Below are positions 53,999-63,881 of a stretch of 64,000 nucleotides of DNA, in pieces (the first letter of the stretch is position 1; the number at the start of each line of letters is the position of its first letter). Under the pieces are notes generated by a model. It was not told where the DNA came from, did not search any database, and saw only the letters and a list, made by a program, of their open reading frames with translations. The stretch is from a bacterium (GTDB lineage Bacteria; UBA8248): the NCBI GenBank assembly GCA_965242545.1, contig OZ251456.1, positions 21,146 to 85,145 on the forward strand, given 5' to 3'. Both the position numbers and the translations under genes were made by a program.

Positions 53999-54368
53999 AT
54001 GGGCTATCGCGGAATGCACGTCGTGGACTCCGACGCGCACTATCTCGAGGAAATTCGGGATTTCGCCAAATATCTGAAAGGCCCCGCCGTCGAGCGCTTC
54101 GCCGACTGGAGCGGGCGATACCACATGCCTGCCCTGGTGGGGGAGCAATACGACGTCATGCTCCACGGCCGCACGGTGCGTGGGCGCCGACGGCAGGGTG
54201 GAGGAGCACTACGCGCGCGAGGAGGCGGACGTCATCGTCTGCCCCATGCACGGCTGGGAGTTCGAGGTCAGGACGGGGGAATGCCTCGCCAACCGCAGGC
54301 GAAAAGCGCGGCGCTTTCCCGTGGAAACGAACGGGGAGGACATTTACGTCATCCTGCCGGGAAGGTGA
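53999..54368 (+). pseudogene. fused gene remnants: amidohydrolase N-terminal fragment joined to a Rieske [2Fe-2S] C-terminal fragment
   Basis: Frame 1 reads MGYRGMHVVDSDAHYLEEIRDF..., an amidohydrolase-like N-terminus of only ~60 aa. Frame 2 reads ...VIVCPMHGWEFEVRTGECLANRRRKARRFPVETNGEDIYVILPGR*, a Rieske second Cys/His box plus C-terminus with no first box. Neither fragment is full length. Confidence 0.5.
54303..54368 (+). repeat. direct repeat copy 1 (island boundary, att-like)
   Basis: GCGCGGCGCTTTCCCGTGGAAACG-AACGGGGAGGACATTTACGTCATCC. It is repeated at 57716-57775 as GCGCGGCGCTTTCCCGTGGAAACGGGCGGAGAGGACATTTACTTCATCC. Confidence 0.7.
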
Positions 54369-54440
54369 GGGGGTGAATCGGGGTGGTGAAAGATCCATCA
54401 CCGATCTTCAAATTGCGAATAAGGATAGGATAGAAGAAAC

Positions 54441-55607
54441 GTGTCTCTGGCGAATCTGGACAGGGAAGCGCTCCGTAAAAAGGTGATGGAGGCTTACGAT
54501 GCGGATAACCCCCATCTCCAGCGGTTCCGGGAACATGCGCGCCGTCTCCGGGACGGAGTGAAGCCGCTTCGCGCATATTCAGCGCACGCGGTCTCGTCGG
54601 TCTCTGCGGATGGCGGCGACAATCGCCTCACGTTTAATCCGGTAGTTGTTGAACTCATCCGGGTTGTGGATTCGCGAGGTATGGAGTGCGTACTTGATGT
54701 CGTCGCCAGCACCAGCACTTTGAAAGAACTGGGAGGGCGCGCCGAGCCGGGATCGGAACATGGAAATCCTCCCTTGCAGCGACTAGCCCAGGATACCGGA
54801 AGGACGCTCGAATATATGGCGTCAAACCTCATCAGAGGCATCGGGACTCCGGGCGGAAGCACCACGGCGATGCGCTGTTACCGCGACATCGTTGAGTGGG
54901 CCGTGCTTTACGATTTTGTTGCGAACCCCAATCTTCAATTGGGTAACGATACAATTCTGGTGCGAGACGGCCTTCTCCGAACCAAGTCCTTCTCGCGGGA
55001 CATGTTCCCTTTGCTGGATGAAAAGATCCGTGGCGGCGTAGCCGCGCACGCGCAAAAAAACGTGCGACTCTCAATCGTGGGCGTAGCGAAGCAAAGCGCC
55101 GTTCTCGGACGACTTGCGGTCGCTCTTGAGCTGGAAGCGACGTTTCACAAGGATTACCCATGCTACGTTCGCGTCGATCGGGACATAGAGAAAGAGTGCT
55201 ACGATTTCGACAGCTCTTGGTTTGAGACGTACGAAACAACAGAGGAAGACAACGCCGGCCGCCGGTTGTACCAATCTCTGGGGCGTCTCCATCTTGTGAA
55301 GTTCGGGGACAGTCCAATGGATCCGGTCTGGCCTGTTGATATCGCTGAATGGCAGGTGGGGGGCGCCGACCGCATTCTGGGGCAACTAATGGCCGACGCC
55401 CAAGAAGGCTTCCCCATCCCCGATTACCCGATGTGCATTCAGCGAGCGCATAACTATGCGAAAATATCGGGTCTCGAAGTCCAGGACCTACAGGATATGC
55501 TTTTCCAAGGATTGTGCAGCAAACTTACAAATGAAGAGTCCGAGCGTCTCCTTCGCATGAAGCACTTGGGGCAAACGCTGGCGGATCTCAGATACAGGGA
55601 AGCCTGA
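54441..55607 (+). CDS. NurA-like nuclease (RNase-H-fold) partner of the HerA-like ATPase
   Basis: 388 aa. The motifs VSADGGDNRL (~aa 55) and TILVRDGLL (~aa 175) resemble NurA DGS-type catalytic motifs. It is immediately upstream and co-directional with a HerA-like ATPase, and lies in lower-GC sequence. Confidence 0.4.
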   Translation: MSLANLDREALRKKVMEAYDADNPHLQRFREHARRLRDGVKPLRAYSAHAVSSVSADGGDNRLTFNPVVVELIRVVDSRGMECVLDVVASTSTLKELGGRAEPGSEHGNPPLQRLAQDTGRTLEYMASNLIRGIGTPGGSTTAMRCYRDIVEWAVLYDFVANPNLQLGNDTILVRDGLLRTKSFSRDMFPLLDEKIRGGVAAHAQKNVRLSIVGVAKQSAVLGRLAVALELEATFHKDYPCYVRVDRDIEKECYDFDSSWFETYETTEEDNAGRRLYQSLGRLHLVKFGDSPMDPVWPVDIAEWQVGGADRILGQLMADAQEGFPIPDYPMCIQRAHNYAKISGLEVQDLQDMLFQGLCSKLTNEESERLLRMKHLGQTLADLRYREA

Positions 55608-55711
55608 AAAAATGCTGTTTTCGAAACGCGCGCATCGTTGGAGCGTTCAAGGGCTTTAATGAGCGCGGCTTTGAGTTTGCGGCTGAAATTATTGCCCCGT
55701 ACGACGCTGGA

Positions 55712-57679
55712 ATGCTTGATCGTCCTCAACTCGGCCAGTTCCTTCTTGTTGAGCTCGGCTCACGGGAAGAGGCCGCGCTCGGACGCATAACGCGCCTCGT
55801 TCCTTCCGGGCTGCTGACGACGCCGGAAGGTGAAGACTACATCACTACGATGCAGCGCAGGCAGCAAGAGGTGCCCGAAGACCTGAAGCAACAGCGCCTG
55901 AAGTATCGCGTTCAGGTAAAACTGCTTGGGGCTGCGCGCGCAAGCGGAAGCGAAATCATCTATGTTCCATCACAGCGGAGACTGCCGCATCTCGGCGCGC
56001 GCGTCGCGTTGCCCAGCGATCTGGTTTTGCGGGAACTATGCAAACTGAGCCAGGGAGAAACGGAGCTGGGGTCATACGTGTTGGGCGAATTCGTATTCTG
56101 CGGCGCTAGTCATAGACAGCGCCAGCGCGAACTGCTCTCTTTGGATCCTCGCCTTCAGGTTACCTTTGACATCAAAAACCTTGTGTCCCGCCGTTCTGTC
56201 GTTTTCGCGCGCGCGGGCTACGGGAAGTCCAATCTCGTCAAGTTTCTTGTCGCCGAGTTATACAAGACGCAGCCGACGACGGGGAGCGGCCGCCCCGTCG
56301 GCACGCTGATTTTCGATCCCGATGGCGAGTATTTCTGGCCTGACCGCGTTGCGGATCGCTCGGGGCTGTGCGATGTGCCGCACCTGAAGGATCGGCTTAT
56401 CGTGTTCACCAACCGGCCAGCGCCAAATCCATACTATGGCAGCTGGAAGGCCGGCGAAGTGAAGCTAGACATCCGAGATATCGCCCCGCGTGACGTGATC
56501 GGCATTGCGATTCCTTCCGACCGCCAAACCCAGCAGAACGTGCTCAAGCTAAAGAGCGTTTCACGCCCAAACTGGCGCGAACTCGTCGATCTGATCCATG
56601 GAGAAGGACTTCGGGCCGAGGACGATGAAATCGGAAAACTTCTTGGCTATGCAGGACCTCAAATCTCGAACGCGGGGGCCGAAATCGCGGCGGCTCGCAG
56701 CAACATGTTCAACGTTGTGCGTACCCTCCACGATCCTGCCAGCAAGTTGCTGGCGAGGACGCTCCGCGCTCTGGCCAAAGGCCAGGTTGTCATAATCGAC
56801 ATCAGCTTGTTGAGTTCGGGTACCGGCAACATGCTTGCCGGTCTGCTTCTCAGGCGGATTTTCTCGCATAACCAGGAGAACTTTACAGGCGGGAATCCCG
56901 TAATCCCCGCCGTCGCCATCGTAGAGGAGGCGCAGAGCGTTCTCGGCCGCCGTCTGGACGATACCAGCCCTTATGTCGAATGGGTAAAGGAAGGGCGCAA
57001 GTACGATCTCGGAGCCATGCTCGTTACGCAGCAGCCTAGCGCGCTGGCGCCCGAATTGCTCAGTCAGGCGGACAACTGGTTTTGTTTCCATCTGCTCTCC
57101 GAAGGCGATGCCGAAGCGCTTGGAAAGTACAACTCCCACTATTCATCGGACATTCTCGCTCATCTCATCGCGGAGCCTATCCCCGGCAATTGCTACATGT
57201 GGAGCGCACCGCATCAGCCCTTCGTGCTTCCGGTTCGATTGCGAGACTTCGGCGAAATCTATGGGGACAACATACGGAAAGAAGATGATGCGTCGCCCAT
57301 AGAAAAAACCGGGACTCAGGAAGTTATCAAGGAGCAGTCGGACGCGATGGCCCGCATCAGAGATTGCGTCCGGGAGCAACTGAAAGAAAATCGCACAGAT
57401 AGAGGCTTTCCGATTAAATACTATAGAATACCTGATGCGCTTCCCGAAGGCAGGGAGGGGGTTGGGATCAAAGATGGCCAACTGTACTACCTCATCAAAG
57501 CCTGCAAATCTCCCGAAGATCCCCACACGGAAGATGAGTTGAAACGCCCAATTCTCGAGCTGTTGCTTGGAGAAGGAATCTTATGGGTCAAAAAGCATGA
57601 GAATGCGGATTACTACTGCGCCGCCCCGGAAGATTGGGAGCGCGTGATCGGAAAGAAGCCGACCCTTTCGGATCCATAA
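55712..57679 (+). CDS. HerA/FtsK-like P-loop ATPase (DUF87-type)
   Basis: Walker A FARAGYGKSNLVKF, Walker B plus catalytic Glu VAIVEEAQSV, and sensor LVTQQP. 655 aa. The size and motifs fit HerA-family translocases. Confidence 0.6.
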   Translation: MLDRPQLGQFLLVELGSREEAALGRITRLVPSGLLTTPEGEDYITTMQRRQQEVPEDLKQQRLKYRVQVKLLGAARASGSEIIYVPSQRRLPHLGARVALPSDLVLRELCKLSQGETELGSYVLGEFVFCGASHRQRQRELLSLDPRLQVTFDIKNLVSRRSVVFARAGYGKSNLVKFLVAELYKTQPTTGSGRPVGTLIFDPDGEYFWPDRVADRSGLCDVPHLKDRLIVFTNRPAPNPYYGSWKAGEVKLDIRDIAPRDVIGIAIPSDRQTQQNVLKLKSVSRPNWRELVDLIHGEGLRAEDDEIGKLLGYAGPQISNAGAEIAAARSNMFNVVRTLHDPASKLLARTLRALAKGQVVIIDISLLSSGTGNMLAGLLLRRIFSHNQENFTGGNPVIPAVAIVEEAQSVLGRRLDDTSPYVEWVKEGRKYDLGAMLVTQQPSALAPELLSQADNWFCFHLLSEGDAEALGKYNSHYSSDILAHLIAEPIPGNCYMWSAPHQPFVLPVRLRDFGEIYGDNIRKEDDASPIEKTGTQEVIKEQSDAMARIRDCVREQLKENRTDRGFPIKYYRIPDALPEGREGVGIKDGQLYYLIKACKSPEDPHTEDELKRPILELLLGEGILWVKKHENADYYCAAPEDWERVIGKKPTLSDP

Positions 57680-57715
57680 CGCTTGGCGCTCTATATGTCT
57701 CCTCGCTCGTTTGAC

Positions 57716-57775
57716 GGGCGCGGCGCTTTCCCGTGGAAACGGGCGGAGAGGACATTTACTTCATCCCGTCCGTCG
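57716..57775 (+). repeat. direct repeat copy 2 (island boundary)
   Basis: See 54303..54368. It duplicates the Rieske 3-prime coding end but without a proper stop. Confidence 0.7.
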
Positions 57776-57801
57776 AACAAATATCGAATCCCCAAAGCCC
57801 G

Positions 57802-58605
57802 TCAGCTCCCCCTGAAATTCGGCTTGCGCTTTTCGTGAAAGGCCTCGACGCCCTCCCGAAAATCGTCCGACTGGCGTAGCCTCGCGTAGCAGTGCCCCTC
57901 CAACTCGATGGCGGCGGAGAGGAGCGCATCCTCGGTTTCGTTGAGCAGGCGCTTGGCCGTGCGCTGCGCCAGAGGCGCGAACCCGCGCAACTCGGCGACC
58001 AGGGCGTCCGTGGCCTTTTCGAGCTCATCGTCCGGGACGACCTCCGAGACGATGCCCCATTCATGCGCCTGCCTGCCGGTGATGCGCTTCGAGCGCATGA
58101 TGATGTTTTTCGTTCGCGTGACGCCGATCATCTTTTGCAGGCGCGCCGAGCCGCCGGAGCCGGGAATCTGCCCCAAGCGCTGTTCGGGGAGGGCGTAAAG
58201 CGTCGTCTCCGAGGCGACGCGGAAGTCGCAGGCGAGCGAGACCTCGAAGCCGACGCCGAAGCAATAGCCGCGATTGGCGGCGACGACGGGCTTCTCGCAC
58301 CTCGCCGGCGCAGCGATGTTGGCGGCCAGTTTCGAGACGTGTTCGGGCGAGGCTTCCAGGAAGCCTCGGATGAATCCGCCGGAGGAGAAGTTCGGGCCGA
58401 GGGCGCGCAGCACGATCACCCGCACCCGATCATCTTGGTCGAGGTTCTCGAACGCGGCGCGCATCTCCTCGCGCTGCCCCATCGAGATGGTGTTCATGTC
58501 GCCTCGGTCGAGAATGACGTCGCCGCGCTCTCGCCCGGCGTCCACCTCGACCGTGAAGCCGTCGAAACTCGCGCCGCTCATATCTTCCGCGCCCCCGCTC
58601 GCCAA
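57802..58605 (-). CDS. enoyl-CoA hydratase/isomerase family protein
   Basis: Crotonase fold motifs (...ANRGYCFGVGFEVSLACDFRVAS...). Confidence 0.8.
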   Translation of the reverse strand: MASGGAEDMSGASFDGFTVEVDAGRERGDVILDRGDMNTISMGQREEMRAAFENLDQDDRVRVIVLRALGPNFSSGGFIRGFLEASPEHVSKLAANIAAPARCEKPVVAANRGYCFGVGFEVSLACDFRVASETTLYALPEQRLGQIPGSGGSARLQKMIGVTRTKNIIMRSKRITGRQAHEWGIVSEVVPDDELEKATDALVAELRGFAPLAQRTAKRLLNETEDALLSAAIELEGHCYARLRQSDDFREGVEAFHEKRKPNFRGS

Positions 58606-63409: not shown

Positions 63410-63643
63410 TTGCGTATGAACCGGGACAAATCGCTTTTCCAAAAGATTCTCGGCGGCCGCTCGGACGGGAATATCCGCTTCGCCGACTTGCGCGGCCCGC
63501 TCCGGCATCTGGGGTTCACCGAAAGGGCGCGGGGAGCCATCACATACTCAGAAGGGAAGGCGTCGCCGAGAGAATCAATCTGCAGCGAGACGGTAGTCAG
63601 GCGAAACCCTATCAGACGCGGCAGGTTCGTCTGGTACTCCTGA
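63410..63643 (+). CDS. HicA-like toxin (possibly degenerate: GSHH replaced by GAIT)
   Basis: KSLFQKILGGRSDGNIRFADLRGPLRHLGFTERARGAITY aligns with HicA ...LL..L.....F.F.EL..LL...GF...R.RGSHH.F. Confidence 0.4.
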   Translation: MRMNRDKSLFQKILGGRSDGNIRFADLRGPLRHLGFTERARGAITYSEGKASPRESICSETVVRRNPIRRGRFVWYS

Positions 63644-63665
63644 AGCATGAGCTGGAGAAGGAGGA

Positions 63666-63881
63666 ATGATGGACAAATACGAGATTATTCTCTATTGGAT
63701 CAACGCGGACGAGGCCTTCGTGGCGGAAGTCCCGGAGCTGCCCGGTTGTGCGGCGCATGGCGACACGCAGGAAGACGCGCTCCAGAACGCCAACCAAGCG
63801 ATGGCTCTCTGGATCGAGACCGCGAGAGAGTTCGGCGATCCGATACCGGAACCCAAAGGCGAACGGCTGATGCTGGCATGA
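63666..63881 (+). CDS. HicB-like antitoxin (UPF0150 N-domain)
   Basis: YEIILYWINADEAFVAEVPELPGCAAHGDTQEDALQNANQAMALWIE matches the HicB N-terminal domain pattern. AGGAGG SD upstream. Confidence 0.5.
   Translation: MMDKYEIILYWINADEAFVAEVPELPGCAAHGDTQEDALQNANQAMALWIETAREFGDPIPEPKGERLMLA

Follow-up and report, generated by a model that had tools for sequence, protein, structure and literature searches.

The window, a 64,000-nt stretch of bacterial DNA, contains a 3,429-bp segment (positions 54373–57801, + strand) that carries genes for a NurA-like nuclease (ORF A) and a HerA-like ATPase (ORF B). GC content is 56.2% within this segment versus 67.4% across the remaining window, and GC3 is 0.63–0.65 in A and B versus 0.86–0.87 in the flanking genes; the DNA is foreign by composition, and the AT-richer block noticed in the preliminary description is real. 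Its boundaries were placed where similarity to L045 and L046, two relatives without the island, stops (54371–54372) and restarts (57802). The right flank is a host enoyl-CoA hydratase gene (57802–58605, − strand) convergent with the HerA gene, recognized by Pfam ECH_1/ECH_2 matches of its homologues and by synteny with L004, L041, L043, L045 and L046.

On the left, the segment follows a chimeric host pseudogene (53999–54368, + strand), in which an amidohydrolase-like N-terminus of about 57 codons is joined to a 62-aa C-terminal fragment of a Rieske [2Fe-2S] protein. Pfam Rieske_2/Rieske matches cover 54180–54368 (Rieske_2 6.4e-07, profile positions 59–103 of 104). Alignment with the relatives revealed that the chimera is in frame in L003 and L041, as a 122-aa ORF, and that the window frame is split by one extra T at 54181. 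The Rieske gene is longer in L045, and L046 keeps 357 nt more of it. Of the Rieske-ferredoxin reading frame described at first, the C-terminus and stop codon are thus genuine, and they belong to a fragment inside a pseudogene.

A repeat search of the 5.1-kb region identified a single prominent direct repeat (54306–54354 and 57718–57766; 45 matches over 49 nt, 92% identity) with no other of comparable quality; the flanking repeats are real, and shorter than the 60–66 nt originally claimed. Copy 1 (54306–54354, + strand) is the 3′ end of the native Rieske frame and encodes ARRFPVETNGEDIYVI. With the Rieske 3′ end of L045 and L046 it shares 87% identity, and the host similarity continues past the stop codon to about 54372, a pattern that marks copy 1, as judged from sequence, as a native gene end and not element-supplied sequence. 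Copy 2 (57718–57766, + strand), at the right edge of the foreign DNA, is a partial duplicate of the Rieske 3′ end without a stop, as had been noted, and is 78–80% identical to the Rieske end of L045 and L046. It was found in L003, L041 and L042; in L004 and L043, which are more distant members of the clade, it is absent and unrelated sequence stands in its place. The 49-bp repeat is a real scar, left either by the acquisition or by some later rearrangement, and may represent an old integration scar.

ORF A (54441–55607, + strand; GTG start, 388 aa) was assigned to the NurA family as a TdpB-like nuclease with an RNase-H fold by profile, fold and motif comparison. No Pfam match was obtained for ORF A itself at E ≤ 1, nor any in PADLOC or NCBIfam, whereas 19 of 54 diverse members of its family matched Pfam NurA (PF09376, best 3.2e-12). 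The family profile matched TdpB with 4.1e-17 and Sulfolobus NurA weakly (E 0.32, with the AxDGG and KAH motifs aligned). Since the window protein is unmatched and the profile reaches NurA only at this value, its link to PF09376 is transitive or structural rather than direct. The AF2 model of ORF A (pLDDT 92.7, pTM 0.90) is predicted to adopt an RNase-H-like fold with NurA topology, and Foldseek ranked TdpB first (4e-12, TM 0.62–0.68), followed by NurA proteins and then Argonaute PIWI domains. Candidate catalytic residues in the alignment of family sequences are D57 (50/54), E152 (53/54), D/E176 (53/54) and H337 (42/54), D57 aligning to the AIDGG motif and H337 to the KAH motif of Sulfolobus NurA. 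The suspicion that the 388-aa protein is NurA-like was therefore well founded, and its identity to TdpB is only 16–17%. TdpAB (PDB 8wet, 8wfd) is the restriction module in TdpABC, a phosphorothioate system found in thermophiles. The Tdp system was reportedly presented by An et al. in 2025 (Nat Chem Biol 21:1160).

The gene downstream of ORF A (55612–57679, + strand) encodes a TdpA-like ATPase/translocase of the HerA family. ORF B matched Pfam DUF87 (PF01935) with 3.7e-24 (86.5 bits, cut-off 23.2), and its top PDB match was TdpA (2e-20), with defence and archaeal HerA proteins ranking next. All of its PDB matches were HerA-type and none was VirB4/TraC or another conjugative ATPase, which, together with the DUF87 match, excludes assignment to the conjugative ATPases, a possibility raised in the preliminary description. 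The Walker A motif GYGKS (56216–56230, + strand) and the Walker B region IVEEAQ (56918–56935, + strand) are present as had been read from the sequence. The anti-phage HerA models of PADLOC and NCBIfam matched the C-terminal half of B only, with 50 bits against an NCBIfam cut-off of 800. ATG 55612 is the start codon of the gene. At 55624–55626 the window reads AAA, against AA in three relatives. This additional A, in codon 5, strips the first 33 residues from the longest window ORF (55712–57679) and may leave the N-terminal barrel domain incomplete; the length of 655 aa first reported for the ATPase is a frameshift artefact, the intact products of relatives being 687–693 aa long.

Alignment of the DNA to the druA–A junction of six canonical cassettes revealed a remnant of the 3′ end of druA (DUF4338) just upstream of ORF A (54397–54437, + strand), whose left limit may reach about 54375. 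The remnant translates as SITDL....IANK in the window and as ITDLHRFHEIANKKG in L004, to be compared with the DruA C-terminus of L001, which ends in TITDLHRLHIVAKKMG and the stop; it precedes A in the window, L003 and L004. The statement that the two genes are the only cargo thus does not hold. The complete cassette was found in about 30 genomes from roughly ten phyla, with A and HerA adjoining DruA/DUF4338 in all of them. Across 37 genome loci searched by tblastn, DruA directly precedes A–HerA wherever the cassette is whole, except that in Bacteroidota it directly follows them; it is missing only from the window, L003 and L004. The cassette DruA matched Pfam PF14236 (1.5e-79) and, over the whole model, PADLOC DruA (5.5e-126). 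In six-frame translations of the 64-kb window the DruA profile detected nothing beyond the remnant; a second druA may lie elsewhere in the genome.

The homologues are patchily distributed over these phyla at 52–89% identity, which fits horizontal transfer, and cassette GC is below host GC in every genome checked; segment 54373–57801 is horizontally acquired. Nitrospira carries the cassette between uvrC and leuS, together with FitA, DUF2283/DUF4258 and PIN-MazE modules. In L048 it adjoins a giant DEAD/Helicase_C/MZB helicase, an HTH protein and a PD-(D/E)XK protein, and in L001 HigB/HTH follows it. The toxin–antitoxin and defence genes in these neighbourhoods point to a putative role in defence against phage or other invading DNA. 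The DruA–NurA–HerA cassette is widespread and apparently undescribed.

The window and L004 proved syntenic across about 20 kb, and their inserts occupy the identical site. Between the two, A and B have a dS of 0.34–0.37 and an omega of 0.14–0.15, and seven flanking host genes have a dS of 0.28–0.44 and an omega of 0.09–0.31. The equal dS values indicate that, as far as sequence divergence can tell, the A/B pair is vertically inherited in the window's clade, diverging in step with the host genes that flank it, and purifying selection as strong as that on neighbouring metabolic genes suggests that the pair, long kept there without DruA, is still useful. Given this omega and the intact A and HerA genes of clade members, the extra A in the window HerA gene is a very recent mutation or an assembly error. 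All syntenic relatives covering the site (L003, L004, L041, L042 and L043) carry the insert, and the next relatives, L045 and L046, have 7.7 kb of other genes there; no empty site, which the preliminary description had hoped to recover as an att site, was found among the relatives.

We consider it probable that 54373–57801 is the remnant of a horizontally acquired druA–nuclease–HerA cassette that has lost druA and retained the effector pair. An ancestor of the window genome and its close relatives would have acquired the cassette between the Rieske and enoyl-CoA hydratase genes, and a deletion would then have removed nearly all of druA along with whatever stood to the left of the cassette; because no empty site was recovered, we infer the order of insertion, druA loss and repeat formation. 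The surviving genes would encode a nuclease–translocase of HerA–NurA type, the nearest solved relative being TdpAB. By homology, a HerA-like hexameric ring may pull double-stranded DNA through its pore using ATP, and a NurA-like dimer may receive the DNA and cut or resect it. In the complete cassette, DruA would most likely sense, regulate, or separate self from non-self. A and B are presumably transcribed from a host promoter upstream of the chimeric amidohydrolase–Rieske pseudogene. Unless the codon-5 insertion is an assembly error, this single base would have broken or shortened the HerA gene very recently, and, together with a C-terminal frameshift in L043, it could mean that the pair is starting to decay. 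Homology and neighbourhood suggest that A and B function in defence.

Continued selection in the absence of DruA is hard to reconcile with DruA as a protective self-marking enzyme. We raise, tentatively, the possibility that DruA–NurA–HerA is an unnamed anti-phage or anti-plasmid system, combining the Druantia component DruA with a nuclease–translocase like TdpAB, in which DruA, as the long survival of the effector pair under selection after the druA deletion implies, is a dispensable sensor or activator and not a self-protecting modifier, the pair acting alone or having been co-opted by the host. If true, the window's clade amounts to a natural experiment with this system, in which the pair has been kept after the loss of druA.

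The preliminary description had instead interpreted the two genes as the complete cargo of a minimal mobile islet; in this reading site-specific insertion targeted the 3′ end of the Rieske gene, and the repeats would be attL and attR. A real 49-bp repeat around foreign DNA, the sharp composition contrast and a left boundary only a few bases from the Rieske stop codon all speak for such an islet, but we consider it unlikely. With a druA remnant within its left boundary, the unit is truncated and not complete. The two-gene form is confined to a single clade, where it sits at a single chromosomal site and has co-diverged with the chromosome. Copy 1 is host-like through the stop, unexpected for an element-supplied gene end, and L004 and L043 share the insert yet have no copy 2. 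As the preliminary description had observed, there is no integrase or transposase gene, none being annotated by Pfam within about 10 kb on either side in syntenic relatives; nor is there a tRNA in the 40–64 kb part of the window, and neither plasmids nor phage records yielded the cassette. In a weaker version, a larger integrase-bearing element may have integrated here and been eroded later.

It is similarly improbable that the pair is a housekeeping HerA–NurA machine for end resection and repair, as in archaea and Deinococcus, and not a defence module. The end-resection complex (PDB 2ygk, 9x1l, 7f6d, 4d2i) is a related pair, but A and B are not linked to Mre11–Rad50; their patchy, horizontally transferred, low-GC genes are fixed beside DruA, a Druantia component, in defence and toxin–antitoxin neighbourhoods, and TdpAB, a restriction complex, is by far the nearest solved relative.

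The loss of druA and the frameshifts in the window and L043 would also fit a defunct, decaying remnant that no longer has a function in the window genome, and two cassettes elsewhere are visibly broken (L019 by an insertion in HerA, L039 by truncation). We regard this as quite unlikely, however: omega has stayed at 0.14–0.15 over a dS of about 0.35 since druA was lost, as in the flanking metabolic genes, ORF A is intact (388–389 aa) in all five clade members, and HerA is intact in L003, L004 and L041. Very improbable indeed is a reading of the pair as a phosphorothioate-dependent Tdp system reduced to its restriction half, the modification gene having been lost or lying elsewhere. In its favour, the best solved relative of B is TdpA and that of A is TdpB, and a TdpB relative shares the gene order. 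Against it, TdpB identity is low, no dnd, ssp or tdpC-like gene lies near any cassette examined, and the third gene, linked without exception, is DruA/DUF4338, which has been described as GNAT-like (PMC10853773); TdpC is reported to work via an adenylated intermediate (PMC12914056, citing An et al. 2025).

The remnant as we favour it, derived from a druA–nuclease–HerA cassette, resembles several known systems in part. With TdpABC, in which TdpAB acts as the restriction module (PMC12914056), it shares, at the level of distant homology, a TdpA-like ATPase and a TdpB-like nuclease, and the order of nuclease gene then ATPase gene, which also occurs in L052 around a TdpB relative (76% identical). 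It differs in the low identity to TdpB and in the third gene: the window has no linked TdpC gene and its third gene is deleted, and complete cassettes have DruA/DUF4338 in that place. The cassette hosts are mesophilic soil and sediment lineages, whereas TdpABC belongs to thermophiles, and there is no evidence of phosphorothioation for the cassette. Like SIR2–HerA and HerA–DUF4297, the pair places a HerA-family ATPase gene next to an effector gene, but the effector here is a predicted NurA-fold nuclease and not SIR2 or the Cap4-like DUF4297. Druantia type I (DruABCDE) is defined by DruA–DruE, DruE being a DUF1998 helicase, and this set is incomplete here: A and B match no PADLOC model of DruB–E, and the window keeps just about 40 nt of druA. 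The complete cassette nevertheless opens with a bona fide DruA, and in L048 lies near a DruE-like DEAD/Helicase_C/MZB helicase; it differs from Druantia type I in lacking DruB, DruC, DruD and DruE and in pairing DruA with NurA-like and HerA-like proteins.

The segment carrying the NurA-like and HerA-like genes differs markedly in composition from its surroundings, with a GC content of 0.51-0.59 across ~54400-57700 against 0.62-0.70 in the flanks, and a GC3 of 0.63-0.65 in the two genes against 0.86-0.87 in neighbouring genes, which bears out the AT-richer block recognized in the preliminary description. Its boundaries were placed where similarity to L045 and L046, the next relatives without the insert, breaks off and restarts. 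Similarity ends at 54371-54372, just past the stop of the Rieske gene, and resumes at 57802, at the stop of the enoyl-CoA hydratase gene, so that the foreign segment spans 54373-57801 (56.2% GC; rest of the window, 67.4%).

The first gene, ORF A (54441-55607, 388 aa), gave on its own no match in Pfam, PADLOC, NCBIfam or PDB, and PADLOC 2.0 holds no model for it. More than 700 homologues were found, the best 120 of which are nearly all 387 aa long and 65-96% identical, those bearing a name being called hypothetical; a search of 50%-identity representatives yielded 287 further, more distant relatives. ORF A could be resolved only by a profile of diverse homologues (54 members) and a structure model. 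The profile matched TdpB (PDB 8wet_G, 4.1e-17) and, weakly, Sulfolobus NurA with the AxDGG and KAH motifs aligned, and 19 of the 54 members match Pfam NurA individually (best 3.2e-12). An AlphaFold2 model built on this alignment (pLDDT 92.7, pTM 0.90) retrieved TdpB first in Foldseek (4e-12, TM 0.62-0.68), followed by NurA proteins and then Argonaute PIWI domains. Together with the conservation of the candidate catalytic residues D57 (50/54), E152 (53/54), D/E176 (53/54) and H337 (42/54), these data identify ORF A as a NurA-family nuclease with an RNase-H fold, as its motifs had first suggested.

For ORF B, matches were obtained to the HerA central domain of Pfam (DUF87, 3.7e-24) and to HerA models of PADLOC and NCBIfam. 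Among solved structures TdpA ranks first (2e-20), ahead of SIR2-HerA, HerA-DUF4297 and archaeal HerA proteins, and VirB4 and TraC were absent from the PDB matches, placing ORF B with HerA and not with the conjugative VirB4/TraC ATPases. The length of 655 aa originally assigned to it is a frameshift artefact. The frame opened by ATG 55612, the true gene start, closes in the window after 15 codons because 55624-55626 reads AAA instead of the AA of the syntenic relatives L003, L004 and L041; a further start in frame does not follow until ATG 55712, and intact HerA in the relatives measures 687-693 aa. Across 14 kb the window differs from L003 by only 13 indels, mostly intergenic, indicating that the assembly is not riddled with frameshifts. 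The extra A may be an assembly error at that single site, or the window copy may be freshly broken.

Scanning one genome per species revealed 37 loci, assigned by record title to Nitrospirota, Latescibacterota, Ignavibacteriales, Eisenbacteria, Acidobacteriota, Gammaproteobacteria, Planctomycetota, Syntrophales, Syntrophomonadaceae, Bacteroidota and Gemmatimonadales, with members 52-89% identical across roughly ten phyla. As shown by tblastn across the 37 loci, a third gene adjoins A and HerA wherever the cassette is whole, lying directly upstream (DruA, A, HerA) or, in Bacteroidota, directly downstream (A, HerA, DruA). It encodes full-length DruA/DUF4338 (Pfam PF14236, 1.5e-79; PADLOC DruA, 5.5e-126). 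Exceptions, without DruA, are confined to the window and the relatives syntenic with it, namely L003 and L041 (~98% identity at the DNA level) and, at ~87%, L004 and L043. The 72 nt separating A from the Rieske stop align with the druA 3′ end of canonical cassettes: the remnant reads ITDLHRFHEIANKKG in L004, compared with ITDLHRLHIVAKKMG up to the stop in DruA of the complete L001 cassette, and SITDL, a 12-nt deletion and IANK in the window. Survival of this 3′ end upstream of A indicates that the druA gene was cut off, and its presence in the window, L003 and L004 alike dates the cut before their divergence. The two genes, previously taken for the only cargo, are therefore the truncated rest of a three-gene cassette.

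Cassettes elsewhere vary in several ways. The three genes of the Bacteroidota loci (L023-L030, L036-L038) are still adjacent in their altered order, and their DruA is only 31-38% identical to that of Latescibacterota. L019 carries a ~1.3-kb insertion within HerA (L019:12375-13647), L039 has a truncated A and has lost most of HerA (L039:10001-11926), and the L026, L031 and L037 cassettes contain multiple frameshifts, some of which are possibly long-read assembly errors. An apparent ubiquitin-like domain in the L001 DruA (L001:8812-9996, residues 151-211) proved spurious: the single-sequence match had a single-domain E-value of ~0.002-0.04, inflated to 1e-21 on polyubiquitin chains, and was gone when a 27-sequence DruA profile was used.

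The window aligns collinearly with L004 along ~20 kb, the insert occupying an identical position in both; dS between them is 0.34 for A and 0.37 for B, within the range of seven flanking host genes (0.28-0.44), indicating that the insert has been inherited vertically since before the two split. The corresponding dN/dS of 0.14 and 0.15 (host genes, 0.09-0.31) places both genes under ordinary purifying selection without DruA. A minimal mobile islet had been envisaged earlier, and the lack of an integrase or transposase gene noted with it was confirmed, none being found near the insert in the Pfam annotations of syntenic relatives, nor any tRNA nearby. Ranked by identity of the flanking hydratase, the 98% and 90% relatives carry the insert, the 87% relatives (L045/L046) hold a different block, and synteny is lost in the 82% relative; none of these four classes offered an empty site. 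In L045/L046 a 7.7-kb stretch carrying glyoxalase, creatininase and ABC-transporter genes lies between the Rieske gene and the hydratase, which leaves no simple empty site. Since the integrase, the polymorphism among relatives and the empty site of an integrative element are all missing among the relatives compared, and druA is truncated, the islet interpretation was abandoned.

ORF A had no match in plasmid or phage records. Two IMG/VR contigs classed as viral, L054 (UViG_3300033167_000284) and L055 (UViG_3300033164_000247), each contain a complete cassette, scoring the same as the Ignavibacteriales L012 cassette against three queries, with an IS3-like transposase fragment a few kb downstream; being the same cassette as L012 beside an IS3-like transposase, they were not accepted as evidence of viral origin. 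The window ends with a lower-GC patch (0.57-0.59) that encodes a toxin-antitoxin pair at 63410-63881, HicA-like (77 aa) and HicB-like (71 aa); in the syntenic relatives L041, L042 and L043 the pair precedes a D12-class adenine methyltransferase and a protein of 261 aa lacking assignment. Possibly this patch was acquired as another small block, ~6 kb away from the first.

The direct repeat, by far the longest in the region, comprises 54306-54354 and 57718-57766 (49 nt, 45 identical); its existence was thus upheld, its earlier length of 60-66 nt being slightly too long. Copy 1, at the Rieske 3′ end, resembles host sequence up to and including the stop codon (87% to L045), and copy 2, at the right edge of the foreign DNA, is 92% identical to copy 1 and only 78-80% to L045/L046. 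In L004 and L043, ~94 nt of unrelated sequence replace copy 2 after GCGGCGCTT. The 49-bp repeat is a genuine scar and at most a possible att site; att-type, Campbell-type and short-homology deletion models were considered for its origin and none fits all junctions. The repeat starts with codons for A-R-R-F-P (54306-54320), and DruA proteins share a conserved P-R-A-x-R-x-P motif (PRARRFPEW in L001, e.g. L001:9900-9930) ~15 codons ahead of the piece surviving upstream of ORF A. The spacing is at odds with simple recombination between the two, and the likeness may be coincidence.

Copy 1 does close a Rieske frame, as proposed (Pfam Rieske_2, 6.4e-07, last 45 model positions matched), but of the Rieske protein the frame holds only the C-terminal 62 aa, fused to the opening ~57 codons of an amidohydrolase-like gene. 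This chimera forms a single 122-aa ORF in the near-identical L003 and L041 and is split in the window by an additional T at 54181. The amidohydrolase-Rieske pair is shortened by differing deletions among relatives (window 53999-54368; L004:9720-9935; L046:15783-16560): L004 shows a further, larger left-hand deletion with its junction at GCGCTT(C/T), and L046, which has no island, is likewise shortened, although by 357 nt less than the window. The locus appears deletion-prone independently of the island. The L001 cassette also adjoins an Amidohydro_2 and Rieske pair; a common origin with that of the window was rejected, the proteins being only ~32% identical or unrelated.

The surroundings of complete cassettes are of defence type. 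The Nitrospira cassette is flanked by uvrC and leuS and accompanied by FitA, DUF2283/DUF4258 and PIN-MazE modules, and that of L001 is followed by a HigB/HTH pair. The L048 cassette (L048:1-8556; JGI 3300027965, Ga0209062_1000706) is directly downstream of a DruE-like helicase of >1,700 aa (DEAD, Helicase_C, MZB/DUF1998), with an HTH protein, a PD-(D/E)XK protein and three proteins lacking assignment also upstream, and may represent a larger Druantia-related island. Cassette GC is below that of the flanks in every genome checked. By homology, ORF B would act as a hexameric ATP-driven DNA translocase coupled to ORF A as a dimeric nuclease. Given the HerA-NurA/TdpAB homology, the neighbourhoods, the low GC and the GNAT-like DUF4338, we favour an anti-invader nuclease-translocase in which DruA would serve as sensor or regulator. 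The selected pair without druA argues against DruA as an indispensable self-protecting modifier, provided that the genome holds no second druA copy. The locus points to a very well conserved three-gene cassette pairing a NurA-HerA-type machine with DruA, and its value lies in the cassette family and the natural druA deletion, a testable hint on DruA's role, rather than in the truncated window copy.

Modules that combine HerA with an effector make up an expanding group of bacterial immune systems, of which TdpAB, reportedly the DNA-restricting part of the Tdp system, is to our knowledge the only solved one with a NurA-fold nuclease; we know of no established role for DruA in Druantia. DruA is the only component shared with Druantia type I. 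DUF4338 has been described as GNAT-like (PMC10853773). According to PMC12914056 (citing An et al. 2025), TdpABC is a compact phosphorothioate system that relies on TdpC alone for the modification. The window pair differs from the Tdp system in having no linked modification gene; among the TdpB relatives found, all on contigs of just 1.6-2 kb, a HerA neighbour and no third gene were seen. HerA-NurA complexes of archaea and Deinococcus function in DNA end resection (PMC9960219, PMC12977600). A limited search of the searchable literature found no description of the DruA-NurA-HerA combination, and the window pair is predicted to work as TdpAB and HerA-NurA do.
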